From: Bacteroidales bacterium
GTDB taxonomy: Bacteria > Bacteroidota > Bacteroidia > Bacteroidales > WCHB1-69
Assembly: GCA_016285145.1 (NCBI GenBank)
Contig: JAEEQE010000004.1
Coordinates: forward strand, 45,022 to 109,021
DNA length: 64,000 nt
Direction of reading: 5' to 3'
Shown: in pieces, positions 1 to 61,516 of the stretch
How the letters are laid out: every line of letters begins with the position of its first letter
Position numbering within the stretch: the stretch's first letter is position 1
The notes under the pieces: model-generated
Database searches by the model: none
What the model was told of the DNA's origin: nothing
Seen by the model: only the letters and a program-made list of their open reading frames with translations
Program-made: the position numbers and the translations under genes

Positions 1-1488
<1,488 letters not shown>

Positions 1489-1970: not shown

Positions 1971-2043
1971 GCGGAAGTAGCTCAGTTGGTAGAGCACAAC
2001 CTTGCCAAGGTTGGGGTCGCGAGTCCGAGTCTCGTTTTCCGCT
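1971..2043 (+). tRNA. tRNA-Gly (anticodon GCC)
   Basis: The cloverleaf can be read directly. Acceptor GCGGAAG pairs with TTTCCGC, the D arm is TAGCTCAGTTGGTAGAGCA, the anticodon loop is CTTGCCAAG with GCC, and the T arm is GCGAG-TCCGAGT-CTCGT. No CCA is encoded. Confidence 0.93.
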
Positions 2044-2048
2044 CAAAA

Positions 2049-2103: not shown

Positions 2104-3174
2104 TTACAATTCACCATTCAAGAATTCCAAAACATCATTGAAAGATAGAAATTCCGAGGTGGCCAACCTGTTGTAGAGGCCTGGGAGTAACTCGGACAAC
2201 TCCTCGTTTGCCATCTTTTCCAACTTCTGCTCCAACTCATAAATTCTTTTCTTCAACGGTGTCAGCTGATGTTGATAGGACATTCTGGTGACTTTAGCCT
2301 CACGGAATTGCCGTTTGAGTTGCTGCTTCTGCAACCTCAGCGATTCCAGCACCTCTTTGCCCTCCTCCTGCTTCCTGCAGTAGTCGGCATACCAGTTCGT
2401 GAGAGCGTCGCGATTGCATTCTAAATAGGCCTTCAAGAGGGTGCGACGCATCCTCTCCGTCTCCTTGGCCCCAGCCTCACGGGTGTCAAGTATCTTCTGC
2501 CGTAACATCTGATTCTCCCTTTGGCAGAAATACAAATTCCTTTCGGTCAATGATTCACCCTTGTCGTTGGCCTCCAGCAGCTTCACCACCTCCTCCAGCG
2601 AGTAGGCCTCGTAATGCTCCTTGGCCTCATCATAACGCGTGTTGACATCCACGAACGGGGCCCAAATGCCATTGAACGGCCTGGGAAGGTTTTCCGACCG
2701 GCATTTCCCATTAGCGTTGACGATGCCGCAGCAGTTGCAGCCCGACAGCGGACTCCCCGCAATATAATACACAAGCCAGGTATCCTCATATTGGTTTATG
2801 ATGGCAGGGACGCACGTCATCCACCATTCGATATAGACACCCAATGTAGGGCGTCGGAATCCGCTGGTGCCGGTGTAGGCGATGCCATTCTGTACGGGCA
2901 CGGGGGCGAGGAACATGCGGCTGTCGCTGAGGATTTGCTCTCGGTGGTCAAAGAGGAAGAAGACATGGTCGGTGAAGAATTTCACGGCCTGCTTGCGCTG
3001 CTCCTCCACTTCCGGCGGAATAGGTTTTACGACGGGCTTCCGCCGCCCGACAGTGAGGTACTGTCCCGTGGTGTCGAGTTTCATTCGGTTGTCGATGGGC
3101 TGTACGGGTTCCACTTTCGGGAAACACAGCAGTTCGCGACCGTTGAGCAAGGTGATTTGATGGATTTTTTTCAT
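2104..3174 (-). CDS. Hypothetical protein (about 356 aa from MKKIHQ) with an unrecognised N-terminal domain and a C-terminal coiled coil. It lies downstream of rtcB on the same strand.
   Basis: The track ORF 2104..3342 begins at a TTG. I prefer the internal ATG at 3174 because a -7 box and a structured RNA occupy 3175..3347. The C-terminal 120 aa are heptad-like and rich in K/E/Q/L. I recognise no family motif. Confidence 0.55.
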   Translation of the reverse strand: MKKIHQITLLNGRELLCFPKVEPVQPIDNRMKLDTTGQYLTVGRRKPVVKPIPPEVEEQRKQAVKFFTDHVFFLFDHREQILSDSRMFLAPVPVQNGIAYTGTSGFRRPTLGVYIEWWMTCVPAIINQYEDTWLVYYIAGSPLSGCNCCGIVNANGKCRSENLPRPFNGIWAPFVDVNTRYDEAKEHYEAYSLEEVVKLLEANDKGESLTERNLYFCQRENQMLRQKILDTREAGAKETERMRRTLLKAYLECNRDALTNWYADYCRKQEEGKEVLESLRLQKQQLKRQFREAKVTRMSYQHQLTPLKKRIYELEQKLEKMANEELSELLPGLYNRLATSEFLSFNDVLEFLNGEL

Positions 3175-3339
3175 CTTTCGGTTCCGGTTGCCTCTACACC
3201 GGAAGGTTCTATGCCGAAGATGAGAAACGCGGTGCCCTTTATCGCTAAAGAACACCGCGTATGGCAGGTTGTTATTTAGCGCGTTTTTTAGAGAGGTTGG
3301 CAATTTGACATAAATCCGTTCCTCTTTCTCATCCGGCGG

Positions 3340-3347
3340 CAAAAATA
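3340..3347 (-). promoter_or_regulatory. -7 promoter box (TATTTTTG on minus strand) between rtcB and the downstream gene
   Basis: Plus strand caaaaata sits within ggcggCAAAAATAcatc, the same GC-clamp plus box arrangement seen at other minus-strand genes here. Confidence 0.35.
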
Positions 3348-3385
3348 CATCATTTTTTCAAATAAGATATTTTTGCTAATAGCAA

Positions 3386-4558
3386 TCACCCTTTGATCAC
3401 GGCAATGGGCGTTAAAGCCACCTTGATTCTCACCAGATCCATCTGATTCTCCATCACTTTGTCAATGTCCTTGTAAGCGGTGGAGGCTTCTTCCAAATCT
3501 TTTTGCACCCGAATGCCGTGCACGATGTTCAGAGCATCCAATTTTGCAATCTCCGTTTTCAGCGACAGTGTGTTGACCGCTTCCGTACGGCTCATACAAC
3601 GGCCGGCACCGTGTGATGAGCTGAGGAAGCTGTCGGGATTGCCCAAGCCTTCCACAATGTAGGAACGGGTGCCTTGTGAGCCGGGAATAATGCCGACCAC
3701 CCCTTCTGCGGCGCGCACCGCCCCCTTACGGTGCACAATGACGTTTTTGTCGAAATGGTGCTCCCATGCCGCATAGTTGTGCGCAATGTTGATCATCGGC
3801 TCAAACTGCACATCGGGAAACGTGTCGGCAATCACCTCCTGAATCCATTGCATCATCAAACGGCGGTTGGCCAGGGCAAAGTCCACACAGTATTGCATCT
3901 CCGTCCAATATTGCTTGAATTCCGGCACGCCAACGGGCAGAAACGCCAGATCCATGCTCGTGTCCACACTTGAGAACCATTTCTGGTTCAAGTTTTTGGC
4001 AAGCGTTGCGTAATAGTCGCAAACCTGCTTGCCAATATTGCGGCTGCCACTGTGCAACATAATCCACAGATAACCCTCCTCGTCACGCTGGAATTCGATA
4101 AAATGGTTGCCGCCACCCAAAGTGCCAATCTGCTTCAGAGCAGCTTCATACTGCCTTTTAACCACTGTAGTGCTGTCAACATCGTAGCCTTCGGGCATTA
4201 GCGATTCATCCTGGGCCGTCTTGTGGTGCTCCATTCCCAAGGGGATGCGTTTGCGCACGCCGCGCATCAGTTTTTTGCGCAACACCTCATCCGGAATGTC
4301 AACCACCGGCAGATTGGTCTTCACCGCACACATCCCACAACCGATGTCCACGCCTACCGCGTTGGGAATCACAACATTGTTCGTGGCCAGTACCCCGCCA
4401 ATGGGCATACCGACACCACCATGCGCGTCGGGCATCAGCGCCACATGGTGAAACACAAAAGGAAGGGAACACAAATTCCCCAATTCCATCCACGCCTTGT
4501 GGTCAAGCTCACGTGCCCACATCTTGACAGGCGTTCCATTCAATAAAAATTCTTTCAT
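3386..4558 (-). CDS. rtcB: RNA-splicing ligase RtcB (3'-phosphate/5'-hydroxyl RNA ligase)
   Basis: 390 aa with the hallmark metal and GMP-binding motifs: ALMPDAHGGVGMPIGGV, VGVDIGCGM, GGGNHFIE, HSGSRNIG and SSSHGAGR. Confidence 0.95.
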   Translation of the reverse strand: MKEFLLNGTPVKMWARELDHKAWMELGNLCSLPFVFHHVALMPDAHGGVGMPIGGVLATNNVVIPNAVGVDIGCGMCAVKTNLPVVDIPDEVLRKKLMRGVRKRIPLGMEHHKTAQDESLMPEGYDVDSTTVVKRQYEAALKQIGTLGGGNHFIEFQRDEEGYLWIMLHSGSRNIGKQVCDYYATLAKNLNQKWFSSVDTSMDLAFLPVGVPEFKQYWTEMQYCVDFALANRRLMMQWIQEVIADTFPDVQFEPMINIAHNYAAWEHHFDKNVIVHRKGAVRAAEGVVGIIPGSQGTRSYIVEGLGNPDSFLSSSHGAGRCMSRTEAVNTLSLKTEIAKLDALNIVHGIRVQKDLEEASTAYKDIDKVMENQMDLVRIKVALTPIAVIKG

Positions 4559-4582
4559 TTCTCTCTTTTTTTATTCACGCCG

Positions 4583-4590
4583 CAAAAATA
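4583..4590 (-). promoter_or_regulatory. -7 promoter box (TATTTTTG on minus strand) for rtcB
   Basis: Plus strand cgccgCAAAAATAtaat lies about 25 nt upstream of the rtcB ATG at 4558. Confidence 0.45.
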
Positions 4591-4606
4591 TAATGCCACT
4601 GCGCAG

Positions 4607-4624
4607 TATTTTTGCGTACTTTTG
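4607..4624 (+). promoter_or_regulatory. Two tandem -7 boxes (TATTTTTG, TACTTTTG) for the WYL regulator gene
   Basis: cagTATTTTTGcgTACTTTTGcagc is divergent from the rtcB promoter. Confidence 0.4.
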
Positions 4625-4650
4625 CAGCAAGTAAAAATATTTTTCTATAT

Positions 4651-4665
4651 AACTGATTATCAGTT
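4651..4665. promoter_or_regulatory. Perfect inverted repeat AACTGAT-T-ATCAGTT, a candidate operator in the rtcB/WYL divergent region
   Basis: A 7-bp arm palindrome read directly from the sequence. It lies between the + strand -7 boxes and the WYL gene ATG at 4697. Confidence 0.4.
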
Positions 4666-4696
4666 TAATAAAATTCAAATAAAATACATTATAATA

Positions 4697-5722
4697 ATGC
4701 CGGTAAACCGAAACGCCCTTATCCGTTACAAGACCATCGACAATTGTTTGCGCAACCGATATCGCCGTTGGACATTGGATAATCTGATAGAAGCCTGTTC
4801 TGACGCTTTAGCGGAATACGAAGGCATCTATAAAGGGATCAGTCGCCGCACCATCCAGGCCGACATCCAGATGATGCGCAGTGAGAAATTAGGGTACAAT
4901 GCCCCTATCGTTGTAATAGACAAAAAGTTCTACACGTATGAAGACCCCAACTACAGCATCACCAACTCGCCGTTGTCGGAAGGCGATATCACCCGCGTGG
5001 GCGAAGCTTTGGAGGTGTTGAAGCAGTTGAGCGGTTTTGCGCAGTTTGCGGGAATGGACAGTCTTGTCAGCCGCTTGGAAGACCGGGTATGCGTCACACG
5101 CCAACAACGGGAACCTGTCATTTATCTTGAGAAAAATGATGATCTAAAGGGCCTGCAGTATATCCGCATTCTTTATGATTATATTGTTGATAAAAAAGTA
5201 ATTAGAATTGGATATCTGCCATTCTCCGCCCGTCAGGTGCGCGAGTGGGTCGTTTCGCCCTATATCTTGAAGGAGTATCGGAACCGTTGGTTCCTTTTGG
5301 GCAAAGTGAAAGGGAAGAACGGGCTGCGCATTATGGCCCTTGACCGGATTGAATTTGTGAAAAACACCTACGGAGAAGAGTATGAGATCTTGCCAAACTT
5401 CAGACCTGCCACCTTTTTCGATGATGTCATTGGTGTGACCAAATCGTTGCAGGACACACCCACCGAGATTGTTTTCACGGTCATTGGGGATCAGGCCCAA
5501 TATGTGCTCACCAAGCCGTTGCATCACAGCCAGAGGATCTTGGAGCGCCACAAGAAAGACCGTTCCATTACCTTTTGGATGAAGGTGGTGATGAATTACG
5601 AGTTGGAACGTCTGTTGTTAGGTTATGGTGACAACATAAAAGTACTGCAGCCCGAAAGTTTAGCCAAAAGACTTCGGGAAATCCATTTGCATGCGGCGGA
5701 ATTGGAATGCGGGAAAGAATAA
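4697..5722 (+). CDS. HTH-WYL domain transcriptional regulator
   Basis: The track ORF starts at 4622. I prefer ATG 4697 (MPVNRNALIRYKTIDNCLRN...) because the promoter boxes and palindrome lie inside the extension. There is an N-terminal wHTH-like region and a WYL-type core (IRIGYLPFSARQVREWVVSPYILKEYRNRWFLLGK...ALDRI), followed by a C-terminal extension. Confidence 0.85.
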   Translation: MPVNRNALIRYKTIDNCLRNRYRRWTLDNLIEACSDALAEYEGIYKGISRRTIQADIQMMRSEKLGYNAPIVVIDKKFYTYEDPNYSITNSPLSEGDITRVGEALEVLKQLSGFAQFAGMDSLVSRLEDRVCVTRQQREPVIYLEKNDDLKGLQYIRILYDYIVDKKVIRIGYLPFSARQVREWVVSPYILKEYRNRWFLLGKVKGKNGLRIMALDRIEFVKNTYGEEYEILPNFRPATFFDDVIGVTKSLQDTPTEIVFTVIGDQAQYVLTKPLHHSQRILERHKKDRSITFWMKVVMNYELERLLLGYGDNIKVLQPESLAKRLREIHLHAAELECGKE

Positions 5723-5776: not shown

Positions 5777-7354
5777 TTAGATGCAGGCTTTAATAAAGTC
5801 CAAGAATAAAGGATGAGGATGCAGGACGGTGCTGGAGTATTCCGGATGGAACTGCGTGCCGATAAACCAGCGATGGTCGGGCAGCTCCACAATCTCCACC
5901 AGCTCGTTCCCCGGATTCACACCCGTGCATTGCATGCCCTTGTTTTCATATTCCTCCTTATATTTGTTGTTGAACTCATAGCGGTGACGGTGACGTTCGC
6001 TGATTTGGAGCGTGCCATAGATGTCCGCCACGCGGCTGCCCGGGCGGAGAGTGCAGTCGTATGCCCCTAAACGCATGGTGCCGCCCATATTGGTCACGGA
6101 TTTCTGCTCTTCCATCAGGTCTATCACATTGTGAGTGGTGGCGGCATCCATCTCCGCCGAGTTGGCATCATGGTATCCCAACACATTACGGGCAAATTCA
6201 ATCACCATCATCTGCATACCCAAACAGATACCGAAGACGGGAACATTGTGGGTGCGCGCATACTTCACCGCCGAAATTTTCCCCTCAATGCCACGCTGCC
6301 CGAATCCGGGACATACCAACACACCCGCCACGCGGGAAAGTTTCTCATCCACATTCTCATCCGTGATATTCTCGCTGTTGATGAACTCGATCTTCACCTT
6401 CACATGGTTGTAGGTGCCCGCTAAGGAAAGGCTCTCCCGGATGCTCTTGTAGGCATCCTGAAGGTCGTATTTGCCCACTAACCCTACGCGCACCTCCTTT
6501 TGGGCGGTCTGCTGCAACTCTAGGAAATGATGCCATGCCTTCATGTCGGGGGTCTCGCCCACCGGCACGCCGAACTTGCGCAGGATGGCGGCATCCAATC
6601 CCTGCCGTTGCATATTGACCGGCACCTCATAGATGCTGGGCAGGTCCTCGCTCTGCACCACACACTCCAAATCCACGTTGCAGAAGGAGGCCACCTTCTG
6701 GCGTATGCTGTCGGAGAGATGCTTCTCCGTGCGCAGGACGAGCACATCGGGTTGTATGCCAGCCCCCTGCATCTCCTTCACAGAGTGCTGTGTGGGCTTT
6801 GTCTTCAGCTCGTCGGCGGCCTTCAGATAGGGCACGTAGGTGAGGTGTACACTCACGGCGCGAGTGCCAAGCTCCCATTTCAGCTGGCGGATGGCCTCCA
6901 GGAACGGAGCCGACTCGATATCGCCGATGGTGCCACCGATTTCCGAGATCACAAAGTCAACATCATCCTCGCGCAGCATCCGGCGCTTGATCTCATCGGT
7001 GATATGAGGCACCACCTGGATGGTCTTGCCCAAATAGTCGCCGTGACGCTCCTTGTCAATGACGGTCTTGTAGATCCTGCCCGTGGTGATCGAGTTGTCA
7101 CGGGTGGCTCGGATTCCCGTAAACCGTTCGTAATGGCCCAAGTCAAGGTCGGTTTCCATGCCGTCCACGGTCACATAACATTCCCCATGTTCGTAAGGGT
7201 TCAGCGTGCCGGGATCGATGTTGATATAGGGGTCGAACTTCTGGATGGTGATAGAGTACCCGCGGTCCTGCAGCAGTTTGCCGATACTGGCCGAAATAAT
7301 GCCCTTGCCTAACGAGGATACCACTCCTCCTGTCACAAAAATATAGCGTTTCAT
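5777..7354 (-). CDS. pyrG: CTP synthase
   Basis: 525 aa. The N-terminus is MKRYIFVTGGVVSSLGKGI, and the glutaminase domain carries GICLGMQ and the HRHRYEFN motif. Confidence 0.97.
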   Translation of the reverse strand: MKRYIFVTGGVVSSLGKGIISASIGKLLQDRGYSITIQKFDPYINIDPGTLNPYEHGECYVTVDGMETDLDLGHYERFTGIRATRDNSITTGRIYKTVIDKERHGDYLGKTIQVVPHITDEIKRRMLREDDVDFVISEIGGTIGDIESAPFLEAIRQLKWELGTRAVSVHLTYVPYLKAADELKTKPTQHSVKEMQGAGIQPDVLVLRTEKHLSDSIRQKVASFCNVDLECVVQSEDLPSIYEVPVNMQRQGLDAAILRKFGVPVGETPDMKAWHHFLELQQTAQKEVRVGLVGKYDLQDAYKSIRESLSLAGTYNHVKVKIEFINSENITDENVDEKLSRVAGVLVCPGFGQRGIEGKISAVKYARTHNVPVFGICLGMQMMVIEFARNVLGYHDANSAEMDAATTHNVIDLMEEQKSVTNMGGTMRLGAYDCTLRPGSRVADIYGTLQISERHRHRYEFNNKYKEEYENKGMQCTGVNPGNELVEIVELPDHRWFIGTQFHPEYSSTVLHPHPLFLDFIKACI

Positions 7355-18716: not shown

Positions 18717-19679
18717 ATGCCGTTGAAGCCAATGATAAAATACAGGGGAGGAAAATCAAGAGAGATTTCCACTTTAATATGGCAAATACCTCATTTCCGA
18801 GGACGCTATATAGAACCTTTTTTCGGAGGGGGAGCTCTTTTTTTCCATCTTGAACCTCGTGAAGCCATCATTAACGATATCAACAAGAAATTAATGGGTT
18901 TTTATGACGGTGTCCGTAATCAATATGACAGCCTACGTAAAGAATTGGATGAGTTAGAAGAGTTGTATGCTATAAATCGTGCGGAATTTGACAAATTGAA
19001 AGTCAAACACCCTAATGAGAAAGTTGAAGACAGGAATGAGGAACTTTATTATCATTTACGAAATCAATACAATGGGATAGAAAAAAAAATGTATTCGGAG
19101 GCGCTGCTTTATTACTATATAAACAAAACAGCTTATTCAGGGATGATTCGGTATAATGCACAAGGTGATTTCAATGTCCCTTTCGGTCGTTATAAAAGTC
19201 TGAACACAAAAAGTGTATCATTGTTACACAGTAAGTTATTGCAACGTGCTTCGTTGTTCAACTTGGATTATAGCGAGATTTTCAACATGTCTGAAGATGA
19301 TGATTTCATATTCCTTGACCCTCCTTACGATTGTATTTTCTCCGACTATGGAAATGTGACCTATCGTGAAGATGGATTTAACGAGGACGAACATCGCAGA
19401 TTAGCTGAAGATTTTAAAAACTTGTCTTGTAAAACCCTAATGGTTATTGGGAAAACCCCACTTACTGAAGAATTATATCGCAACTATATTCAGGATGAGT
19501 ACAAAAAAAACTATGCAGTAAACATACGTAATCGTTTCAAATCCAGTGCCACGCATATTATTGTGGCCAATTACAAACGTGATTTAGCTCATTTGGAACC
19601 TGTTGAATATGAAAATATTCCTGAAATAACTCAACTGTTGGCATTTGAAAAACAAAAAGAATATGGCAAGCGTAAGTAG
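18717..19679 (+). CDS. Dam-family (D12 class, alpha-type) N6-adenine DNA methyltransferase
   Basis: KYRGGKS, motif I EPFFGGGALF, NDINKKL and catalytic motif IV FLDPPYD appear in Dam order. The gene is visibly AT-rich relative to its neighbours. Confidence 0.85.
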   Translation: MPLKPMIKYRGGKSREISTLIWQIPHFRGRYIEPFFGGGALFFHLEPREAIINDINKKLMGFYDGVRNQYDSLRKELDELEELYAINRAEFDKLKVKHPNEKVEDRNEELYYHLRNQYNGIEKKMYSEALLYYYINKTAYSGMIRYNAQGDFNVPFGRYKSLNTKSVSLLHSKLLQRASLFNLDYSEIFNMSEDDDFIFLDPPYDCIFSDYGNVTYREDGFNEDEHRRLAEDFKNLSCKTLMVIGKTPLTEELYRNYIQDEYKKNYAVNIRNRFKSSATHIIVANYKRDLAHLEPVEYENIPEITQLLAFEKQKEYGKRK

Positions 19680-21339
19680 TCAATTGTTGTTTCTTACAAC
19701 TTCTCCTCGCACTCCAGAAAAAATGGTAGCGGAGATTGCTCTTTTAATAGAACAATTCAATGGGTTGGTATGGAATAAAGATTCCCAGACAGCTTTTATG
19801 AAAGCGTTAAGAGAAGCTGATTTTTATCAGGGCATCGGGGAAAACGACCCGTCCTTCAGTGCAAGAGACAGGATAAACAGAGCTCCTAAATCATTAGGTT
19901 TTGTGACCCTTAAGCCTAACATTCAACTTACGCCCGCGGGTCAACAGCTTTTATCCGCAAAACGCAAAGACGAAGTGTTTCTACGGCAAATGCTGAAATT
20001 CCAAATTCCTTCTCCTTATCATAAACCGACAGAAAAGGCAGCATACTTCTGCGTCAAGCCGTATCTTGAATTGCTACGGTTAGTGCGCACCTTGGGGACA
20101 TTGAAATTCGACGAGTTGCAAATATTTGGTATGCAACTTACTGATTATCATAAATTTGACACTATAGTTGAAAAAATCGAAATATTCAGGGAGGAAAAAG
20201 CCAAACACAATGGGAATTATCGTAAATTCAAAGCAGAATATTTGCGACAAGAGCTTTCCTCCATCTTTCATGAAAGAATTTCAAAAGGAGACCTCAAAAC
20301 AAGAGAAAGTGACAGCAAATCTCTAAACAAATTTTTGGATACACAGGCAAGCAATATGCGGGACTATGCGGATGCCTGCTTCCGCTACTTTCGCGCAACA
20401 GGCCTTGTTGCCGTATCTCATGTTGGAAAATCGCTGTCTATCGTGCCGGAACGCACAGCTGATGTGGATTATATCTTAAAAAACACATCTCGAGAACCTA
20501 TCGTTTTTTCTAAAGAAAATGAATATGCCGATTATCTTGGCAAAGCAGAAACCCCAAAATTGCTAACCGATGACAAACAACTGCTTGTCAAAAAAATCAA
20601 GACAGATTTTCCAAATATTAAAAATTCAGAAAAATCCTCTCTTTTTGAACTCAAAGATTTGTTAGCCGATTTGCTTGAAAAACGCAAGAAAGCAACATTG
20701 TCTTCGCAAATCACAAAACTAAAAGACTATTGTTTTTATGATGATATACAAAATACCTTTGAACAAATAAAGAACAATAAAATCTACGATGCTCCGCTAA
20801 TAATGGAATGGAACACTTGGCGGGCAATGACCATGCTTGACGGAGGGGATATTAAAGCCAATATCAAATTCGATGATTACGGGAATCCCCTTTCCACAGC
20901 ATCTGGAAACATGGCTGATATCGTTTGTGACTATGGTGATTTTTACGTTTCTGTAGAAGTCACATTATCGGCAGGCCAACGACAATACGAGACAGAAGGG
21001 GAGCCAGTGTCACGCCATCTCGGAAGATTGAAAACAAGCACAAACAAACCCTGCTATGGTTTGTTTGTCGCTCCAACTATCCACGATGCCTGCATCAGCC
21101 ATTTCTATTTGCTTCATCACCTGAATATAGTGTTATATGGTGGCACATCAACCATTATTCCTCTTCCATTGAATATTTTTCAAAAAATGATTGAAGACTC
21201 CTACAAAGCCGATTATGTACCAAATCCTCAACAAGTCAAAGACTTTTTTGAATTCTCCAATTTGATGGCAAAAAAATCTGGCAATGAAAAAGAATGGCAT
21301 GAGAAAATCATAAACAGAGCCTTGAACTGGCTACATTGA
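19645..21339 (+). CDS. Type IIS restriction or nicking endonuclease, AlwI/BstNBI/MlyI/PleI family (start could be ATG 19663)
   Basis: From my recollection of Nt.BstNBI, the motif series matches along the whole length: TSPRTPEK, FNGLVW, FSARDRINR..LGFV, FLRQMLKFQIPSPYH, MRDYADACFRYFRATGL, MEWNTWRAM, DFYVSVEVTLSAGQRQYETEGEPVSRH and LFVAPTI. The gene overlaps the methyltransferase gene end. Confidence 0.65.
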   Translation: MKNKKNMASVSSQLLFLTTSPRTPEKMVAEIALLIEQFNGLVWNKDSQTAFMKALREADFYQGIGENDPSFSARDRINRAPKSLGFVTLKPNIQLTPAGQQLLSAKRKDEVFLRQMLKFQIPSPYHKPTEKAAYFCVKPYLELLRLVRTLGTLKFDELQIFGMQLTDYHKFDTIVEKIEIFREEKAKHNGNYRKFKAEYLRQELSSIFHERISKGDLKTRESDSKSLNKFLDTQASNMRDYADACFRYFRATGLVAVSHVGKSLSIVPERTADVDYILKNTSREPIVFSKENEYADYLGKAETPKLLTDDKQLLVKKIKTDFPNIKNSEKSSLFELKDLLADLLEKRKKATLSSQITKLKDYCFYDDIQNTFEQIKNNKIYDAPLIMEWNTWRAMTMLDGGDIKANIKFDDYGNPLSTASGNMADIVCDYGDFYVSVEVTLSAGQRQYETEGEPVSRHLGRLKTSTNKPCYGLFVAPTIHDACISHFYLLHHLNIVLYGGTSTIIPLPLNIFQKMIEDSYKADYVPNPQQVKDFFEFSNLMAKKSGNEKEWHEKIINRALNWLH

Positions 21340-25296: not shown

Positions 25297-25329
25297 AGAA
25301 AGAAATGTCTCTTCGAGACATTTCTTTCT
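25297..25329 (-). terminator. Perfect 15-bp hairpin overlapping the stop codon of the 3082-aa gene (possible terminator)
   Basis: agaaagaaatgtctc-ttc-gagacatttctttct. There is no clear U-run on the minus strand, so its function is uncertain. Confidence 0.45.
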
Positions 25330-28300
25330 ACTTCTTTATCGCTTTCCGCACCGTCGCAATGCGACCTTCCGCTATTATTTCCACGAAATAGATACCCTTA
25401 GCATACGGGGTAAGGTCTATCTGCATGATTTCTGAAGATATCGGAACCGATTGCAGCAACTTGCCGTATGCGTCATACAGGAGAATGTCGGTTGGCAGTG
25501 CACTGTAATGCGAGAACCTTACATTGAGAATGTCGTTTGTAGGATTGGGATAGATAATGACATTATTGTCGAGCAGATAATCGTTCACGCCCACAGAGAC
25601 GGAAAGATGCAATGTCACGATACTGTCGCAGCCGTTTGCAGCTTGCAAGGTTTGCATGTAATCACCTGAAGCACAATATGTTTCCGTGTTCCAATGGTAG
25701 CACGAGTCGGGAGTGGCAATGGTAAAGTCGGAATAGGTGGGGGCAATCACGTTAACCGGATGAGAAGCTCTTTCGGAACATCCGTTCTGGTCCGTGACGG
25801 TGACGGAGTAGCTTCCGGCATCACTGCCCGTAATCTGGTTGGTAGTGGCACCCGTGGACCACAGGTACTGGGTACCGCCAGTAGCCGTCAACGTGAACAT
25901 GTCGCCTTCGCAGATTTCGTTGTCACCGGTAATGGAAGGTGTAGGCAACGGTAACACAGTCAAAGTGAGGGTTATAACACTATCGCAGCCATGAATTGTC
26001 GGCACCGTGTCACGATAAACGCCCGCCGTGGTGAGCGTTGTTCCGAGGAAGTTGTAACTCTCGCCCTGACAGATGGTATCTGCCATTGAGCTGGATGTAG
26101 CGTGATACAGCGTAAGGTGGAGCGTGACTACAGAATCGCAACCATTGGCATTGGTTAATGTTTGCGTGTAAACGCCTGACTGCGTGTAAATGGAATCGTT
26201 CCAGGTATAACTATTGCAGGCAACATCTGTAAATTGCGTTGATGATGACGGGTTAATAGTCAAATGAAGCGTTACGATACTGTCACAGCCATCCTCATTC
26301 GATAAAATCTGTGTATAATCGCCACTTTGTGTATAGGTGGAATCATTCCAAGTGTAACTGTCACAAGCAACTTGAGTAAATGTAGTAAATGAAGAGCTGT
26401 TGATGTTCAGATGGAGCGTGACTATGGAGTCACAACCATTCGCATTGGTGAATACCTGCGTATAATCGCCGCTTTGTGTATAGGTAGAATCATTCCAGGT
26501 GTAGCTGTCACAAGCAATTCGGGTAAATGAATGGGTGGTGGGCGTGTTCACCGTCAACGATAGGACAATAATGCTGTCGCAAGCATGAATAGACGACAAT
26601 GTATCGCGGTAAACGCCCGTCGCGGTGAGGTTATTGCCAAAGAAGTTATAGCTTTCGCCCTGGCAGATCTCCGCCGCCACCGGCGTTTCATACACCGGGT
26701 TCACCGTCAAGGTCATCGTCACGATGGAGTCGCAGCCGTAAACGGTTTGCAGGGTGGCTATCTGCGTGCCCGCGGCCGTGAAGGTCTTATTGTTCCATAC
26801 TATCGGAAGCGCGCTTTCGCACACGCTCCGTCTGTCGGTGACATTGTAGGTGGAATGCACCGTCAACGACAGGATGATGACGCTATCACAGCCATGAATT
26901 GTCGGCAACGTGTCGCGATAAACGCCCGTTGTGGTCAGCGTTTTGCCAAAGAAGTTATAGCTCTCGCCTTGGCAGATTTCCGCTACTACCGGTGTTTCGT
27001 ACACCGAGTTCACCGTCAAAGTCATCGTTACGGTGGAGTCGCAACCATAAACGGTTTGCAGGGTGGCCGTCTGCGTGCCCGCTGCCGTGAAAGTCTTATT
27101 GTTCCACACTATCGGAAGCGCGCTTTCGCAGACGCTCCGTCTGTCGGTGACATTGTAGGTGGGATGCACGGTCAACGTCAGAGCGATGACGCTGTCGCAA
27201 CCATGAATTGTTGGCAATGTGTCGCGATAAATGCCCGTCGCGGTAAGCGTTTTGCCAAAGAAGTTATAGCTTTCGCCCTGGCAAATCTCCGCCGCCACCG
27301 GCGTTTCATACACCGGATGCACGGTCAGCGTCAAAACGATGACGCTGTCGCAACCTTTTACGGTCCGTAATGTGTCGCGATAAACGCCCGCCGTGGTGAG
27401 CGTTTTATTAAAGAAGTTGTAACTCTCGCCCTGGCAGATCTCTGCCGCCATCGGCGTTTCATACGTAGGATGCACCGTCAACGTCAGAACGATGACGCTA
27501 TCGCAGCCATGAATTGTCGGCAACGTGTCACGATAAACGCCCGTTGCGGTGAGCATTTTACCATAGAAATTATAGCTCTCGCCTTGGCAGATTTCCGCTG
27601 CTACCGGCGTTTCATACACCGGGTTCACCGTCAAGGTCATCGTCACGGTGGAGTCGCAGCCGTGAACAGTTTGCAGCGTGGCCGTCTGCGTGCCTGCCGC
27701 TGTGAAGGTCTTATTGTTCCACACATACGGAAGCGCGTTTTCGCAGATGCTCCGGCTATCGGTGACATTATACGTGGGATTGACGGTCAGATTCAGCGTG
27801 AAAACGCTGTCACAGCCGTGGATGGTATGCAACGTATCTGTGTAGAAGCCTGCCGTGGTCAGCGTCCGCCCAAAGAACGTGTATGTCTCGCCCTGACAAA
27901 TCGTATCATGGATTGCCGTCAGCATGGAGAAATAAAGGGTAAGGTGCAGCGTAACGGTTGAATCGCAACCATACCTGTTGGTAAATGTCTGCGTGTAATC
28001 GCCACTTTGGGTGTAAATGGCATCGTTCCAAACATACTGGTCACAGGCGGTGTCTGAGAATTGGGTGAATGAGACAGGATTAACAGTCAGTGCGAGGGTT
28101 ACAATGCTGTCGCAACCGTGGCTGGTCAGCACCGTGTCGGTGTAGAAGCCCGCCGTGGTCAATGCATTCCCGAAGAACATGTACGTCTCGCCCTGACAAA
28201 TGGTGTCAATCAGGCTGGTGAATTGGGAATAATTGACGGTTAAGTGCAACGTGACGGTCGAATCGCAGCCGTTGGCATTGCGGAGTGTTTGGATGTAATC

Positions 28301-31300
28301 ACCCGACTGCGTGTAAAGGGAATCGTTCCAGCGGAAGCTGTCACAAGCTGTTGCGGTGAAGGTGTTGAATGAGAGCGGATTCACCGTAAGGTAAAGGGTC
28401 ACGATGCTATCGCAGCCGGCAGAGGTCTGAAGCGTGTCGGCGTAGGTCCCGCTTTCCGTAATCACACGATTGTGGAAAACATAGCTGTCGCCTTGGCAGA
28501 TTTCACGGATAACACGGACAGAAGGTGTCACATGCTGCAATATCTCGCTCAGCATAAAGCTCTTTTCGAGAGACAATCCTCCAATATCCGTTGTCCGTAC
28601 CCGTATGGAGTATAATGTTTGGGGACTACAGACGAACGTGGCGGCCGTTCTCAACTGGTTGCCATCGATAGTAAACAAGGCGTTATCCGTATCGCCATCG
28701 CCGCTCACCAACTCATATACGAAGGGCAGGTTCACATCATTGTCCAACGTGTAGAACTCGCCCACATAGCTGTTGACAGGACCATATTCATAGAAGGAAT
28801 TACCGTTCAACACAAGGTCAATGGGCGGCTCGTTGTAATTGACGGAAGTGTCAGCCAAGGGCTTGAAATCCTCTTTGTTGCCCACATTGTCGGTGGCGAT
28901 GGACATAAACTGGTAATAGACACCATTTTCGAGGGTATATGAAAATGTGCTGTCCGGGTGGGTGCTGCCGATAAGCGTGTAGGCGGCATTGTTGACAGAC
29001 ATATAAACGCCCACTTCGCGCACACCCGACCCGCCTGCATCGTCTTGGGCCTCGAACGAAAAGGTGCAATAGAGGGAATCCTGTGCATTCAGATCCGCAT
29101 GGAGCATGGAGGTGGGTGCCACGGCATCAAAGGTGTTGGTCCACACGTTGGTACCTATCGCAGCGTTGTCGTCAAACACGATAAGGGCCTCGGCCCCGAC
29201 GGTGTCGCCAGTATGGACATTGGCCTCCGGATTGATGTAGAAACTGACATAACCCTGCCCGTGCTCCAAAGAGTCATTGATGGGCAGGAAACCCATCTGC
29301 GAACTGACAGGTTCCGCGCCAGTGGCGGGATCTATACTCTGGAAAATCCAGAACAGCTGATGGTTCTGGATGTCAATGCCGGCATTCACATCCACCCAAA
29401 CGCCCAAAGAATCCGACACATCCAAACGCTGGCTGTAGGACGACGCATTGGAGGGAACATTGAAGATGAAGCTTCCGAAACCGAAATCCGCCAGACGGAA
29501 AGAGGAGATTTTCTGCTGGTCCGGCACATCATAGGTAATCTTCACGCGCGAGGCGGGTGCCATAGCGAAATCCGGATCGTTTTCAAATTCTATGGTGTAG
29601 TTCATCTTGTCGGTGGCGTTCACAAAACGGTTCTCATCCGAATATCCGTTCGGACCCCGAATCTCATTCGGGTCCTTGGCACACTCCAGTTTCTTGGCCC
29701 AACCATCCAACGTATTAGAAGCCTGAGCGTTATTCGCATCTGTAACAGAGCAGGTAACGCTGAAATACCCTTCAGAAGGGGTAATGGTTTTGACAGCCGA
29801 TGTGTTGCTTATCTGCCGCCATCCATGGAAACTGTATGGCTGCTTTCCTCCCGAAGCCGAGGCCGTGAACGTGACACTTGGAATGCCGTTGCAGCCTCCT
29901 TGCACGTCGGTGGGTCCTGTCACTTTCACTTTCAAATCACAATCCTTCTTCTTGGTAACTTCTACCGTTTTCTTATAGAACACCACGTTTGTGAATTGAT
30001 TGTGCTTCACTTTTACCGAATAGGTTCCCTTGGATAAACCCGTCACGTATGGGGCATTCGAAATAAGACTGTTATCCTTCCTCCATTCTATAACACATTG
30101 GCCTCTGATTTCTTCTGGAATATAAATAGACACTTCCCCATCCTTCCCCGGATCACAGGATTCTTCTTTCTCCATTCTAGCATACATACAGTTCTTGTCG
30201 CCGTCTTTCTTTTTGATGGTAAGATGCAAGGTCGTAGTACTTTCACAGCCATTTTCATTGAAATATCTATAGACATAGTCCCCGCTTGACCTATAGGTGA
30301 AGCCGGTGGCCGCCCAAGTATATTTGTCAAAGGCCGTTTCATAGATTTCATCATCCGTGCCTTTAAAGATGGTCAAGTGCAACGTCTTGCTGCTGGGACA
30401 TCCATGGGAGTTGGTGTATCGGAACACATGGTTGCCACTTTCCGTATAGGTCTGGCCATTGACAAGCCAGAAATAGGAATCACATTCCGAAACGGTTTCT
30501 TCTTCTATATCTCCCTCATGGATAGTAAGATGCAGGATTTCCGTGACGGCACATTGGTTCTCATTAAGATAGGTATAAGAGTATGTACCACTTTCCGTAT
30601 AGGTTTGATTATTGACTGGCCACATATAGGATCCGCATTTTGTGACAGAAGATTCGTTGGTCTCCTCATGGTTGATGGTCAGAATCAATGTATGCATACT
30701 CTCACATCCCGAATCATTCATATATGTATAATAATATTTACCGCTATGTGTATAGGTCTCACCCGTGACATTCCATCGGTAAATCTCGCAAGCGGTAACC
30801 TCAACGGAATCTTCAGAACCTTCTCCCACAGTCACAGCAAACGAGGCGGAGTTGTGGCAGTTGTTTTCGTCAGTACCCGTTACCGTATAGGTGATATTGT
30901 CGGTGGGCTCCTCCAGAATAGTCTTGGATGTGCTACCGGTAGACCATACGTATGTCTTTGCTCCCGAAGCGGTCAGTTCCGTACTCTCCCCTTCGCAAAT
31001 CATATCATCACCACTGATGCTCACAATGGGCAATTCGTTGACCGTTACAAAAACAGAGGCAAAACTGCGGCACATGTTGGCATCCACACCCACTACGGAA
31101 TAGGTGGTGCTGGCGGTGGGGCTTTGTGTGATGCTGTTGCCCGCGCTACCCGTATTCCACGAATAGCTTTGGGCTCCTGTGGCCGTGAGGGTGACACTCT
31201 CCCCCTTGCAGATCATGGCACCGCCGAGGATGAACACACTCGGCAGGGGATTGACAATCACCGAGGCGGTGGCCGTGGCCGTACAACCGTGGATATCCGT

Positions 31301-34300
31301 ACCCGTCACGGCATACGTCATGTTGCTAGAGGGCGCATCGGTGAAGCTGGGGCCTGTAAAACCATTGCTCCACTGGTACGTTTGGGCACCCGCAGCGGCC
31401 AGCATGACACTTTCGCCGCTACAGATGGACCCGCCACCCGAAATGCTCACCTGGGGTAATCCGTAAATGGTCAGATGCAGGGTTTGGGAACTGGGACATC
31501 CGTCGCTGTTGTTATACTCATACACATGGTTGCCACTTCTTGTATAGGTCTGACCCGTTGCAGCCCATGTATAGGATTCACATTCCGTGATGGTTTCCTC
31601 TGTATGAGTGCCGTGATGGATGGTGAGATTCAAAATCTCGGTGGTCTCGCACTGGTTGGCATTAGTATAACTATACGTATAAGTGCCGCTTTCCGTATAG
31701 GTCTGCCCATTGACCGGCCACGTATAGGATTCATCACATCTGGAAATAGACGTGGTGTGCGTCTCGTTGTGCGTGATGGTCAGAATCAGCGTGTGCGTAC
31801 CCAAGCATCCTGCGCTATTGGTGAACGTGGTGGAATAGGTGCCGCTTTCCGTATAAGTCTGCCCGTTGGCGTACCAAGTGTAGGATTCGCAGGCGCTGAC
31901 ATTGATGGTGTCAGACGTACCCTCGCCCACGACTACGGTGAACGAGGCGTTATTCGAACACCCGTTCCCGTCCGTACCCGTCACCGAATAGTTTGTGTTG
32001 ACGGTAGGACTCACGAGGACCGTCCGGCTGGTGCCGCCGGTGGACCAGACGTAGGTCTGCGCACCCGAAGCAGAAAGTTCCGTACTCTCGCCTTCGCAAA
32101 TGGAGGTCTTGCCGGCAATGTGGACCGTAGGCAATGGATGCACGGTAACCGAAACAATCTTTGTGGCTGTAGCCTTACAGGATCCTTGTGAAACCGTGGC
32201 AGTCAAAACATAATTACCTGATTGATTTGTTGTTGCATTTGGAAGTGTAATATGATCGCTGGTGCTGGTGAACTGGTTGGGGCCGGTCCAGCTATATGCG
32301 ATGTCCCCATTGCCTGTGGCGGATGGGGCGATACTGATAGTCTGATGCAAGCACACGGACACGGGTGGGATGTTGCCGAGGGTGACAGTGGGTTTGTGGA
32401 TGGTGAGATTCAGAATCTCGGTGGTCTCGCACTGGTTGGCATTGGTATAACTATACGTATAAGTGCCGCTTTCCGTGTAGGTCTGTCCAGTGACCAGCCA
32501 TGTATATGATTCACATTCCGAGATGTTGGTGGTGTGCGTCTCATTATGGTTGATGGTCAAAAACAGCGTGTGCGTACTCAAACATCCTGCCCCATTGATG
32601 AACGTGGCGGAATAGACGCCGCTTTCCGTGTAGGTCTGCCCATTGGCAAGCCAAGTGTAGGATTCGCAGGCGCTGACGCTGATAGTGTCATCTGAACTCT
32701 CGCTCACGATTACCGTGAATGAGGCATTGTTGGAGCAGCCGTGGATATCCGTACCCGTCACGGCATACGTCGTGGTGTTCTCAGGCGCATCGCTGAAACT
32801 GGCTCCTGTAGAGCCATTGCTCCACTGGTATGTTTTGGCACCCGTAGCGGCTAACATGACACTTTCTCCACTACAGATGGAAACTCTACCCGATATGCCC
32901 ACCTGGGGTAATCCGTAAATGCTCAGATGCAACGTTTTGGAACAGGGACAGCCGTCGCTGTTGTAGTACTCGTACACATGATTTCCGCTTTCCGTGAAGG
33001 TCTGACCTGTCTCAACCCATGTATAAGATTCACATCCCGAGATGGTTTCCTCCGTATGGGTGCCATGATGGATGGTAAGATTCAGAATCTCGGTAATCTC
33101 GCATTGGCTGGCATTGGTGTAACTATAAATATAGGTACCGCTTTCCGTGTAAGTCTGCCCATTGACCGGCCAAGTGTACGTTTCGCATTCCGATATTGTG
33201 GTGGTGTGTGTCTCGCTATGGGTAATAGTCAAATGCAGCGTGCGCGTGCTTTGGCAGCCGGCATTGTTGGTATATACAGAGGTATAGGTACCGCTTTCCG
33301 TATAGGTCTGCCCGTTGGCGTACCAGGTGTATGATTCACAGGCCGTTATGCTGATGGCGTCATCCGTACCCTCGCCTACCGTTACGGTAAACGAGGCGTT
33401 ATTCGAACATCCGTTCTCGTCCGTACCCGTGACCGAATAGTTTGTATTGGCGGCGGGACTCACAAGAACCGTCCGGTCAGTACTGCCGTTGAACCAGACG
33501 TAAGTCTGTGCCCCCGAAGCGGAAAGTTCCGTGCTCTCACCTTCGCAAATGGAAGTTTTGCCAGCAATGTGGACAGTAGGCAATGAATGTACCGTAACCG
33601 ATATGTCCTTTGTGGCTGTAGCCTTACAGGGACCATCCTTGACAATGGCGGTTACAGTATAATTACCTGACATATTTATTGTTGCATTTGGAATGGTAAT
33701 ATGGTCGCTGGTGCTGGTGAACTGGTTGGGGCCTGTCCAGCTATATACAATGTTTCCATTACCCGTGGCATTTGCAGCAATACTGATGGGTTGATGCAAG
33801 CACACGGACACAGGTGGAATGTTGCCGAGGGTGACAGCAGGTGTAAGAATGGTCAGATGCAAGGTGTCGTTATGCGCATGCCCTTGTGCATCGGTATAGG
33901 GATGTATGTATGTACCGCTTTCTGTGTAGGTCTGCCCAGTGGCCGGCCATTTATACTCATTGCACTCAGTAACATAAATGGTATAGAAAAACAATTTTAT
34001 GTGTATGATGCTGTCACACCCGTACATGGTGCGATAGTTCAAAGAGAAAGAGATTGAATCCGGTGTGCCAACGCCCAATACAGTGTCTCTGTATGTATAG
34101 GGCAGCTGGCTTTGCGAAATCCGGATAGTGTCCCATGTCTCGTCGGGAATGCAGTTGGTGACGAAGCGCACTTCCTCGCCGTATGCCGTACCCACGCTGT
34201 TGGTCGCGTAGGCGCGCACATAATACTCCTGTCCCGGGATCAACCCCTCTATGGAGCTGTTAAAGGTGCCTATGCCGCTACCGTTCACCGTATGGCTGTC

Positions 34301-61207: not shown

Positions 61208-61327
61208 ACTTTTTAAAATTTAAAAGTTAAACAATACGTCAATGTGTCATTGCTTTGGGAAAAGAGTACGGAGAGAACCGTTGCGGGCGTTTCTCGTGTA
61301 AGCCTACCTCCCGAAGCTGTGCACTAT

Positions 61328-61512
61328 TTGCGACTTCCGGCAGGTTTTCTGACTTGCCCTCCCTCGGACCGAACCTTCCCATTGGGCGTACCAACAGTGG
61401 TTTTTGCAGGATGTCCGAGGCGGAAAAGGGCTTACAGCAGCGGGTACTGTACAGGATTTCCACCTGTTTCCCTCTCACGGCTCCCTTGCGGGAGACCGCT
61501 CACCGGAAATCG
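61328..61512 (-). promoter_or_regulatory. Cobalamin (B12) riboswitch aptamer
   Basis: The minus-strand RNA reads ...GAGAGGGAAACAGGUGGAAAUCCUGUACAGUACCCGCUGCUGUAAGC...AACCACUGUUGGUACGCCCAAUGGGAAGGUUCGG...GGCAAGUCAGAAAACCUGCCGGAAG. This gives the GGGAA-GGUG-AAAUCC-CCCGC-CUGU core, the CCACUG...GGGAAGG element and the B12 box AGUCAGnnnnCCUGCC in canonical order. Confidence 0.85.
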
Positions 61513-61516
61513 GCGG

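Follow-up and report, generated by a model that had tools for sequence, protein, structure and literature searches.

We analyzed a 64,000-nucleotide (nt) stretch of DNA from a Bacteroidales bacterium (assembly GCA_016285145.1, contig JAEEQE010000004.1, positions 45,022 to 109,021 of the forward strand; here called the window), in which the gene for the RNA ligase RtcB lies between a divergently transcribed gene for a WYL-domain regulator and the gene for a 356-amino-acid (aa) orphan protein. An earlier reading, made from the sequence alone, had taken the three genes to be one RNA-repair module. The features and coordinates that it described are real, but the module did not hold up. Instead, the locus probably comprises two autonomous transcription units (rtcB with the WYL gene, and a structured leader with the orphan gene) that are neighbors only in this species-level lineage. 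The three genes are as follows.

3386 to 4558, minus strand: rtcB, RNA-repair ligase gene; 390 aa, a short RtcB-family 3'-phosphate/5'-OH RNA ligase (Pfam RtcB)
4697 to 5722, plus strand: YafY-family regulator gene; 341 aa, with WYL (residues 155 to 219) and WCX (residues 256 to 330) domains (Pfam; PADLOC WYL models)
2104 to 3174, minus strand: orphan gene; 356 aa, with a conserved N-terminal domain and a C-terminal coiled coil

RtcB and the divergent WYL regulator

The rtcB product contains a full-length RtcB domain (PF01139, E = 3.2e-112; residues 27 to 390 on profile positions 3 to 426 of 426), and its motifs VGVDIGCG, GGGNHF, HSGSR, AHN, and SSSHGAGR align with those of T. thermophilus RtcB (2epg). 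Going by published RtcB structures, we take these motifs to be the active site, with metal-binding Asp, Cys, and His residues and the GMP-accepting His in HGAGR. The 390-aa protein scores below the NCBIfam cutoffs for both the E. coli-type and the PrfH-type families.

The open reading frame (ORF) list and the Pfam domains agree with the sequence-only reading on the position and divergent orientation of rtcB and the regulator gene. The WYL (PF13280, E = 6.7e-10) and WCX (PF25583, E = 5.6e-10) domains of the regulator both pass their cutoffs. It has 7941 homologs, named YafY or helix-turn-helix (HTH) regulator, and those in Parabacteroides, Bacteroides, Dysgonomonas, Alistipes, and Tannerella are 55 to 58% identical to it. 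An N-terminal DNA-binding HTH is to be expected because homologs bear the names “YafY family” and “HTH transcriptional regulator”; thus, in the earlier designation “HTH-WYL regulator,” the WYL part is borne out by Pfam, and the HTH part is carried over from the names of homologs. Among solved structures, there are weak matches to PafBC and CapW, the closest being PafBC (E = 0.0011).

No sigma54-dependent RtcR with a CARF domain adjoins rtcB, the gene divergent from it having WYL and WCX domains only, and no other regulator is encoded within ten genes on either side. Likewise, no rtcA cyclase gene is adjacent: the gene after rtcB has no family match, and the remaining neighbors are atpD, pyrG, and a gene for a GATase protein. 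Annotation of the neighboring genes in the window bore out the earlier statement that rtcA, rtcR, archease, Ro/Ro60, and prfH are all missing near rtcB, and neither a TROVE-domain gene nor a Y-like RNA was found within the window.

Conservation of the rtcB-WYL pair

The divergent pair, with a spacer of 136 to 138 nt, recurs in close relatives (loci L008, L109 to L111, and L112 to L114), in which the regulator is 76 to 92% and RtcB 81 to 95% identical to the window's proteins. Relatives whose regulators are 92%, 79%, and 76% identical all have the same 390-aa rtcB, divergent and 136 nt away. The pair is kept in four of four close-relative contexts while the flanking genes change in each, these being an efflux operon, a Por-secreted protein, or HSP70/NspV. 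At greater distance, the regulator is found beside larger sets of repair genes. The Parabacteroides ortholog faces a TROVE (Ro60) gene followed by a gap, RtcB, an RNA ligase (PF09414), and an HD/AAA_33 gene. The gap between the TROVE gene and rtcB holds a YrlA-like RNA (35.6 bits, E = 5e-5; the gathering score of 69 is not reached) together with an overlapping tRNA-like element, whose 40.4 bits exceed the gathering score for tRNA.

L007, 4060 to 4265, minus strand: YrlA-like RNA/tRNA-like element of Parabacteroides timonensis (LT669941.1)

In Dysgonomonas, RNA ligase and AAA_33 (kinase-like) genes lie upstream of the regulator, and in Alistipes two rtcB genes lie within 6 kb of it. Three further observations concern the surroundings of these orthologs. 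In P. timonensis (L007), the regulator is followed by a gene for an 857-aa protein without a Pfam match; the Dysgonomonas regulator is immediately preceded, on its own strand, by an 87-aa ORF (L009, 5734 to 5997); and in Tannerella, the regulator is preceded by a gene-free stretch of 600 nt (L117, 6406 to 7000).

Judged by gene order, rtcB and the divergent WYL regulator are a two-gene unit conserved across Bacteroidales. Because the same regulator lineage adjoins larger repair operons elsewhere, the regulator would be the functional counterpart of RtcR in this order. The earlier proposal that a WYL sensor stands in place of RtcR is therefore supported by the conserved pair, by repair-gene neighbors in three genera, and by a common operator-like motif (see below). 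The idea itself is not new, having already been predicted computationally: two papers that cite Burroughs and Aravind (2016) give it as an earlier prediction that WYL transcription factors sense RNA ends and regulate RNA repair pathways (PMC9503650, PMC7824862).

The closest parallel is the Rtc system of E. coli (RtcR-RtcA-RtcB) and Salmonella, in which RtcB is likewise divergent from a dedicated one-component, ligand-sensing regulator. The Parabacteroides operon, with Ro60, a YrlA-like RNA, and RtcB, matches in content the rsr-yrlBA-rtcBA operon that RtcR controls in Salmonella (PMC7790460). The two systems also differ in several respects. RtcA is absent from the Bacteroidales locus, and RtcB is of a short, 390-aa subfamily; moreover, while RtcR is a sigma54 enhancer-binding protein with a CARF domain, its presumed counterpart would be an HTH-WYL-WCX protein acting at Bacteroidetes-type -7 promoters.

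A candidate operator in the shared control region

The intergenic region between rtcB and the WYL gene (4559 to 4696) spans 138 bp and has back-to-back -7 boxes and a perfect palindrome, as had been noted before. It contains the following elements, identified from the sequence.

4583 to 4590, minus strand: rtcB -7 box TATTTTTG (TAnnTTTG), with a GCAAAA core kept in four orthologous regions
4598 to 4607: perfect palindrome ACTGCGCAGT
4601 to 4618, plus strand: candidate WYL operator GCGCAGTATTTTTGCGTA, 18 bp, GCGCA-N7-TGCGTA; consensus [G/A]CG[C/T]A-N7-TGCGTA
4607 to 4614, plus strand: possible second -7 box of the WYL gene
4617 to 4624, plus strand: WYL gene -7 box TACTTTTG, overlapping the right half-site of the operator and conserved in the alignment
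4651 to 4665: perfect 15-nt palindrome AACTGATTATCAGTT in the 5' untranslated region (UTR) of the WYL gene, with a core, TGATnATCA, kept in four close orthologous regions

When the four close intergenic regions were aligned, two blocks were found to be kept besides the promoter boxes, namely, CTGCGCAnT.TTTTTGCGTA and TGATnATCA. The operator motif lies 91 to 118 nt upstream of the WYL ATG in the window, in L109, L008, and L112, and in Parabacteroides (L007), where the block reads GCGCAGGGTTTTTGCGTA. Dysgonomonas (L009) has GCGCAAAGCTCTTGCGTA, while Alistipes (L116) has a variant, GCGCAGTCTTTTTGCGCA, upstream of the regulator and a second copy, GCGCAATGTTTTTGCGTA, inside the rtcB cluster. In all, [G/A]CG[C/T]A-N7-TGCGTA stands upstream of the regulator gene in six of nine distinct contexts. 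When GCGCA-N6-10-TGCGTA was searched for across 114 loci (>1 Mb), seven of the nine loci matched were regulator-linked sites. Within the 64-kb window, the candidate operator is the only exact site, and matches with two mismatches are no more frequent than expected by chance. 

The placement of the motif bears on how the regulator might act. The TA of its right half-site is also the TA of the regulator promoter's TACTTTTG box, and the motif as a whole is situated about 10 to 35 nt upstream of the rtcB -7 box. Because of this position relative to both boxes, it would be expected to serve both autoregulation and joint control of the two promoters. We propose that a regulator dimer binds the 18-bp GCGCA-N7-TGCGTA site between the -7 boxes and, when unliganded, keeps both promoters off; a nucleic-acid-derived ligand at the WYL domain would then lift repression and induce rtcB along with the regulator itself. 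The likeliest ligand would be broken RNA, e.g., a piece of tRNA or rRNA that ends in a 2',3'-cyclic phosphate or a 3'-phosphate, and RtcB would presumably reseal such ends (3'-phosphate or 2',3'-cyclic phosphate) to 5'-OH ends. Our choice of ligand is guided by the established properties of WYL domains and by RNA-end sensing as predicted in the literature (PMC9503650, PMC7824862, PMC4012209).

Repression relieved by ligand is the most likely mode suggested by this arrangement, and its main rival is ligand-dependent activation, in which the motif would recruit RNA polymerase to rtcB once the WYL protein is liganded. WYL domains are ligand sensors, with nucleic acid ligands in DriD and PafBC, and both of these proteins are activators triggered by single-stranded DNA. 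PafBC is also the closest, albeit weakly matching, solved relative of the regulator, and the distance of the motif from the rtcB -7 box is one that class II activators use too. On the other hand, the overlap of the right half-site with the regulator's own -7 box is typical of autorepression, as in BrxR and CapW. We regard activation as possible but the less probable of the two modes.

In general terms, the regulator resembles other WYL factors (PafBC, DriD, BrxR, CapW, and the YafY family) in its WYL and WCX architecture, in being divergent from its target, in having a palindrome-like candidate operator that overlaps its own promoter, and in its expected nucleic acid trigger. It differs in that its similarity to the solved members is marginal (E of at least 0.001) and in its target, which is an RNA-repair ligase rather than DNA-damage genes or a phage defence system. 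Two observations count against our reading of the pair. Pfam did not detect an HTH in the regulator, the sole match being a weak one to HTH_11 (E = 0.12, residues 47 to 71); and the orthologs of Bacteroides sp. 224 and Tannerella lack both the operator motif and repair genes as neighbors.

The orphan protein and its neighborhoods

No Pfam or NCBIfam family was found for the 356-aa protein, in keeping with the earlier description of a protein with no recognized motif and a long coiled coil. Its 1179 homologs are all unnamed. The alignment delimits an N-terminal alpha/beta domain of about 205 aa with the motifs DSRMFLAPVP, GTSGF..PTLGVYIEWW, and GSPLSG, and a C-terminal coiled coil that ends in YQxQLTPLKK. 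The AlphaFold model has long helices at residues 208 to 329 (pLDDT of 84 for the whole protein), and the AF2 model of the N-terminal domain has a pLDDT of 81 and a pTM of 0.80. A fold or profile search with this domain had been suggested as a means of placing the protein, but no relative was detected by either sequence or fold. Neither the full-length nor the N-domain model matched a PDB structure (best E, 0.86 and 0.46, respectively) or a viral structure in BFVD (best E, 0.18); a profile search of PDB sequences returned coiled-coil noise only, and matches in PADLOC and PHROGs were at the coiled-coil level only. Kinship of the N-terminal domain with the SAM-lyase-like or SAM-synthetase-like proteins encoded near some homologs (SAM, S-adenosylmethionine) was considered and rejected (hhalign probability, at most 0.2).

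The sequence-only reading had cast this protein as a module partner, and a gene neighborhood survey bears on this. A scan of one genome per species gave 179 matches in rumen and gut Bacteroidales, of which the best 80 loci were kept. The linkage of rtcB with the WYL gene proved to be conserved, but neither gene was found within 8 kb of an orphan homolog at any of the 80 loci (0/80). Conversely, no orphan gene was found at the other rtcB-WYL loci, including that of the relative with a 92%-identical regulator and those with regulators down to 76% identity. The absence of conserved linkage largely refutes the three-gene module, in which the coiled-coil protein would be an RtcB accessory or effector under WYL control. 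Several observations speak for that arrangement nonetheless: the orphan gene adjoins rtcB in the same orientation, several samples of the window's own lineage have contigs of equal length that encode all three proteins, no strong terminator follows rtcB, and some homologs have a LigT/2H phosphoesterase within a few genes. Yet no operator motif is present upstream of the orphan gene in the window; moreover, the conserved promoter is the gene's own, and unrelated genes carry the same leader (see below). Taken together, these results make a single module very improbable.

The genes that do recur near orphan homologs are of another kind. A NADAR gene lies upstream on the same strand, usually directly adjacent, at 20 of the 80 loci, and a NADAR-orphan fusion is found in P0080. 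A microbial PARG and a 575-aa AAA protein are each encoded nearby at 17 loci; a 262-aa SAM-synthetase-N-like protein is encoded at 11 loci (directly downstream in 9) and an FGase-family hydrolase at 8 (directly downstream in 7). SprT-like and LigT genes are recurrent neighbors as well. In being fused to or directly following NADAR genes, and in lying among microbial PARG, SprT-like, and LigT genes, the orphan homologs recall the NADAR/PARG neighborhoods described by Iyer et al. 2022 (PMC9503650). The difference is that the NADAR, PARG, SprT-like, and LigT genes are missing from the window and that the orphan domain matches no ADP-ribose-processing family by sequence or fold. With low confidence, these gene associations suggest a function in nucleotide, ADP-ribose, or SAM-linked chemistry rather than in RNA ligation.

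Some members of the family and its surroundings deserve separate mention. The 262-aa protein (L042, 3047 to 3835, plus strand, and 10 further loci), which accompanies distant members of the orphan family, matches SAM synthetase in the N-terminal domain only (E = 4e-8) and also matches phrog_1569, a phage family of unknown function (E = 2e-63). Certain orphan-family members (L001, 8001 to 9503; P0040 and P0047) carry at the N terminus an additional domain of about 140 aa that contains two CxxC pairs and resembles a zinc ribbon. At L100 (1 to 705, minus strand), this zinc-ribbon-like domain is joined directly to the coiled coil and the central DSRMFL domain is missing, so that the coiled coil appears to behave as a separate module. 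At L056 (2168 to 6807), the neighbor of a 439-aa orphan homolog is another WYL-type regulator (311 aa, with 26% identity to that of the window), after which come genes for a 556-aa AAA protein and an FtsK-like protein; the operator pattern at 5082 to 5099 of this locus is at chance level.

The leader of the orphan gene

The 211-nt spacer between rtcB and the orphan gene folds at -73.8 kcal/mol (z = -5.1 versus shuffled sequence), which corroborates the earlier observation of a structured leader after rtcB. Its features are listed below.

3373 to 3385: palindrome TTGCTAATAGCAA, directly after the rtcB stop codon (sequence)
3340 to 3347, minus strand: orphan gene -7 box TATTTTTG (sequence; alignment of copies)
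3212 to 3333, minus strand: 122-nt leader core, noncoding, in the 5' UTR of the orphan gene; 95 to 99% identical across genomes
3266 to 3330, minus strand: SAM-II (long loop)-like hairpin and A-rich/GCUAAA tail (Rfam RF01726)
3228 to 3259, minus strand: 14-bp hairpin CGCGGUGUUCUUUA/UAAAGGGCACCGCG, then UUUCUCAUCUU (minimum-free-energy fold; pair counts in 18 variants)

In most aligned copies, the TA..TTTG of the -7 box is kept while its middle two bases vary (L001 and L020 have ATTG for TTTG); the orphan gene therefore appears to have an independent promoter. A palindrome of the form TGC-N5-GCA lies about 35 to 45 nt upstream of the box in L010, L011, L013, L015, L017, and L018, though not in all copies, and the window's TTGCTAATAGCAA may be an operator, an insulating hairpin, or a protein-binding site of the leader cassette.

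The core is exactly 122 nt long, without indels, in 14 loci besides the window; variants with short insertions occur in L092, L093, and L103. It is 95 to 99% identical to the window copy, compared to 50 to 64% at third codon positions of the adjacent gene, and it is kept across genomes in which the linked genes are 61 to 78% identical in amino acid sequence. Some genomes have several copies (L013 and L020; L015 and L019; L012). That the leader is noncoding follows from its frame relative to the ATG, which differs in L001, the locus whose protein has an extra zinc-ribbon domain. Gene callers often extend the protein through the leader to 412 to 419 aa, but we rejected such a coding extension given this frame difference, the invariance of synonymous sites, and the near-invariance of the “extension” beside a protein that is about 75% identical. 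A 14-codon leader peptide, also considered, found no support; three of four variable positions inside it change the amino acid.

The four proposed helices are 97.6% paired across 18 distinct variants, with changes falling in loops or, at four stem positions, preserving the pair, and L092 has a register-shifted G-C to A-U compensating change in the outer helix. The 14-bp hairpin could be a terminator or an expression platform; the U-rich tail that follows it can pair with GGAUGAGAAA at the 5' end of the leader (3326 to 3334 with 3218 to 3226). A covariance model search found no leader upstream of homologs of about 30 to 58% identity and no second copy in the window. Elsewhere, a metagenome scan yielded 19 further copies, mostly before the orphan gene. 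The exceptions include L090, L092, and L100: the leader stands before an FGase-like gene in L090 and L094, which are identical at the element, one diverged copy lies before a gene for a 309-aa S-AdoMet_lyase-family protein (PF23780, E = 8e-9), and another before genes for a 108-aa orphan and a zinc-ribbon/coiled-coil protein. In every copy, the leader is oriented as part of a 5' UTR, and its distance to the start codon of the gene that follows is roughly constant.

Of 4227 Rfam families, only RF01726, the long-loop variant of the SAM-II riboswitch (Weinberg et al. 2010, PMC2864571), matched the leader below an E of 0.01 (26.7 bits, E = 0.0028 in a 251-nt search), and other copies score about 25 to 27 bits (25.3 to 26.7 in five copies). 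The P1 stem, the U-rich loop, and the A-run/GCUAAA tail come in canonical order (cmscan, model positions 1 to 60, and comparison with the seed). Like SAM-II, the leader lies in a Bacteroidetes 5' UTR after a TAnnTTTG promoter; it has the P1 stem AGAGG/CCUCU, GAUUU..AUUGC..AACC, the A-run, and GCUAAA in the same order, and one copy precedes a SAM-lyase-family gene. It differs from SAM-II in that the motif is set within the near-invariant 122-nt element, with an outer helix and the 14-bp hairpin, and in that the downstream genes are other than SAM biosynthesis genes. Because of the shared motifs, the paired helices, the conservation, and the genes that follow it, we interpret the leader as an RNA that regulates in cis; it would probably be a switch derived from SAM-II, with a predicted ligand, and falls outside RF01726.

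More specifically, the leader may represent a new riboswitch class that arose from the SAM-II pseudoknot through altered binding-site nucleotides, that senses SAM or a related adenosyl compound (e.g., a SAM derivative or breakdown product), and that switches on a regulon in rumen Bacteroidales consisting of the SAM-lyase-family protein, the FGase-like hydrolase, and the DSRMFL/coiled-coil orphan; this fuller proposal is a tentative one. In such a switch, a SAM-II-like pseudoknot followed by a terminator-like hairpin would act in cis and answer SAM or a related adenosyl compound, and the small regulon would also take in small orphans.

Several findings detract from these interpretations. The score of 26.7 bits does not reach the RF01726 gathering score of 44, and the GCA/UGC pseudoknot pairing of Bacteroidetes SAM-II is not kept, the leader having GCC/CGC. 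There are no double-sided changes in fixed columns among the 18 variants, and near-invariance over 122 nt is unusual for a riboswitch. As for the autonomy of the unit, no clear terminator was found after rtcB, and read-through from rtcB into the orphan gene is therefore possible.

The near-invariance and the absence of double-sided covariation could instead indicate that the 122-nt element does not sense a metabolite at all and is a small-RNA gene, an RNA or DNA platform to which a protein regulator binds, or a sequence that gene conversion keeps uniform. The existence of several copies per genome and of a conserved palindrome upstream of part of them would fit such readings, and a stand-alone RNA of about 110 nt could terminate at the hairpin and its U-rich tail. 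Against this, the similarity to SAM-II is specific, the orientation within the 5' UTR and the distance to the start codon are kept, and the element is associated with SAM-related genes; furthermore, concerted evolution within a genome cannot explain why the leader is kept across genomes with diverged linked genes. We consider such a non-sensing role possible but less probable, and a SAM-II-derived switch the better account of the element.

Flanking genes and other features of the window

Two further features lie between the orphan gene and atpD, outside both units.

1971 to 2044, plus strand: tRNA-Gly (anticodon GCC), a flanking gene (ARAGORN; Rfam tRNA, 62.9 bits)
2045 to 2082: perfect 16-bp inverted repeat with a 6-nt loop (100% complementary) and A and T runs at its sides

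From its sequence, the inverted repeat looks like a bidirectional terminator separating the tRNA-Gly gene from the convergent 356-aa gene. The flanks of the locus are housekeeping genes, with atpD (1 to 1416, minus strand) and tRNA-Gly(GCC) on one side and pyrG (5777 to 7354, minus strand) and the GATase protein gene on the other.

The adjacent tRNA-Gly, together with the occurrence of both units in many different genomic contexts, raises the question of whether the orphan gene and its leader, possibly with the rtcB-WYL pair, make up a mobile island integrated at this tRNA gene. It had been noted earlier that the tRNA gene is accompanied by no attachment-site repeat, and this agrees with our data: ARAGORN called the tRNA, and a repeat search found no direct repeat of its 3' end. 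Moreover, integrase and mobility genes are absent from the window, atpD and pyrG flank the locus, and neither the orphan family nor the leader was found in viral contigs. An island of this kind is thus improbable.

Elsewhere in the window, a cobalamin riboswitch (61322 to 61522, minus strand; 95.3 bits) lies upstream of a 639-aa ORF (59288 to 61207, minus strand) that has the appearance of an outer-membrane receptor. Two giant ORFs of 3082 and 3832 aa (25328 to 34576 and 37345 to 48843, both on the minus strand) begin with signal-peptide-like N termini and probably encode large proteins that are secreted or located at the cell surface; between them lie two ORFs of about 450 aa. Finally, a 320-aa ORF with the start MPLKPMIKYRGGKSREIS (within 18717 to 21339, plus strand) reads, by its motifs, as a putative Dam-type adenine methyltransferase, and a 558-aa ORF overlaps its end; the two may be a restriction-modification pair.

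Significance

To our knowledge, RtcR of enterobacteria is the one case in which it is known how bacteria sense RNA damage. With its candidate operator, the order-wide, one-component WYL regulator offers a simple test system in gut Bacteroidales for finding out which signal induces RNA repair and whether the ends of RNA are read by WYL domains. The part of our findings that is most likely new is the ultraconserved, SAM-II-like leader that heads a putative small regulon. It is among the most conserved noncoding elements that one could expect beside a fast-evolving gene, and if it proves to be a switch that descends from SAM-II and recognizes a new ligand, the number of riboswitch classes would grow by one. 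Should this be true, the leader regulon would link SAM status to ADP-ribose or nucleotide-modification chemistry and would offer a first way into the function of an orphan family with over 1000 members.

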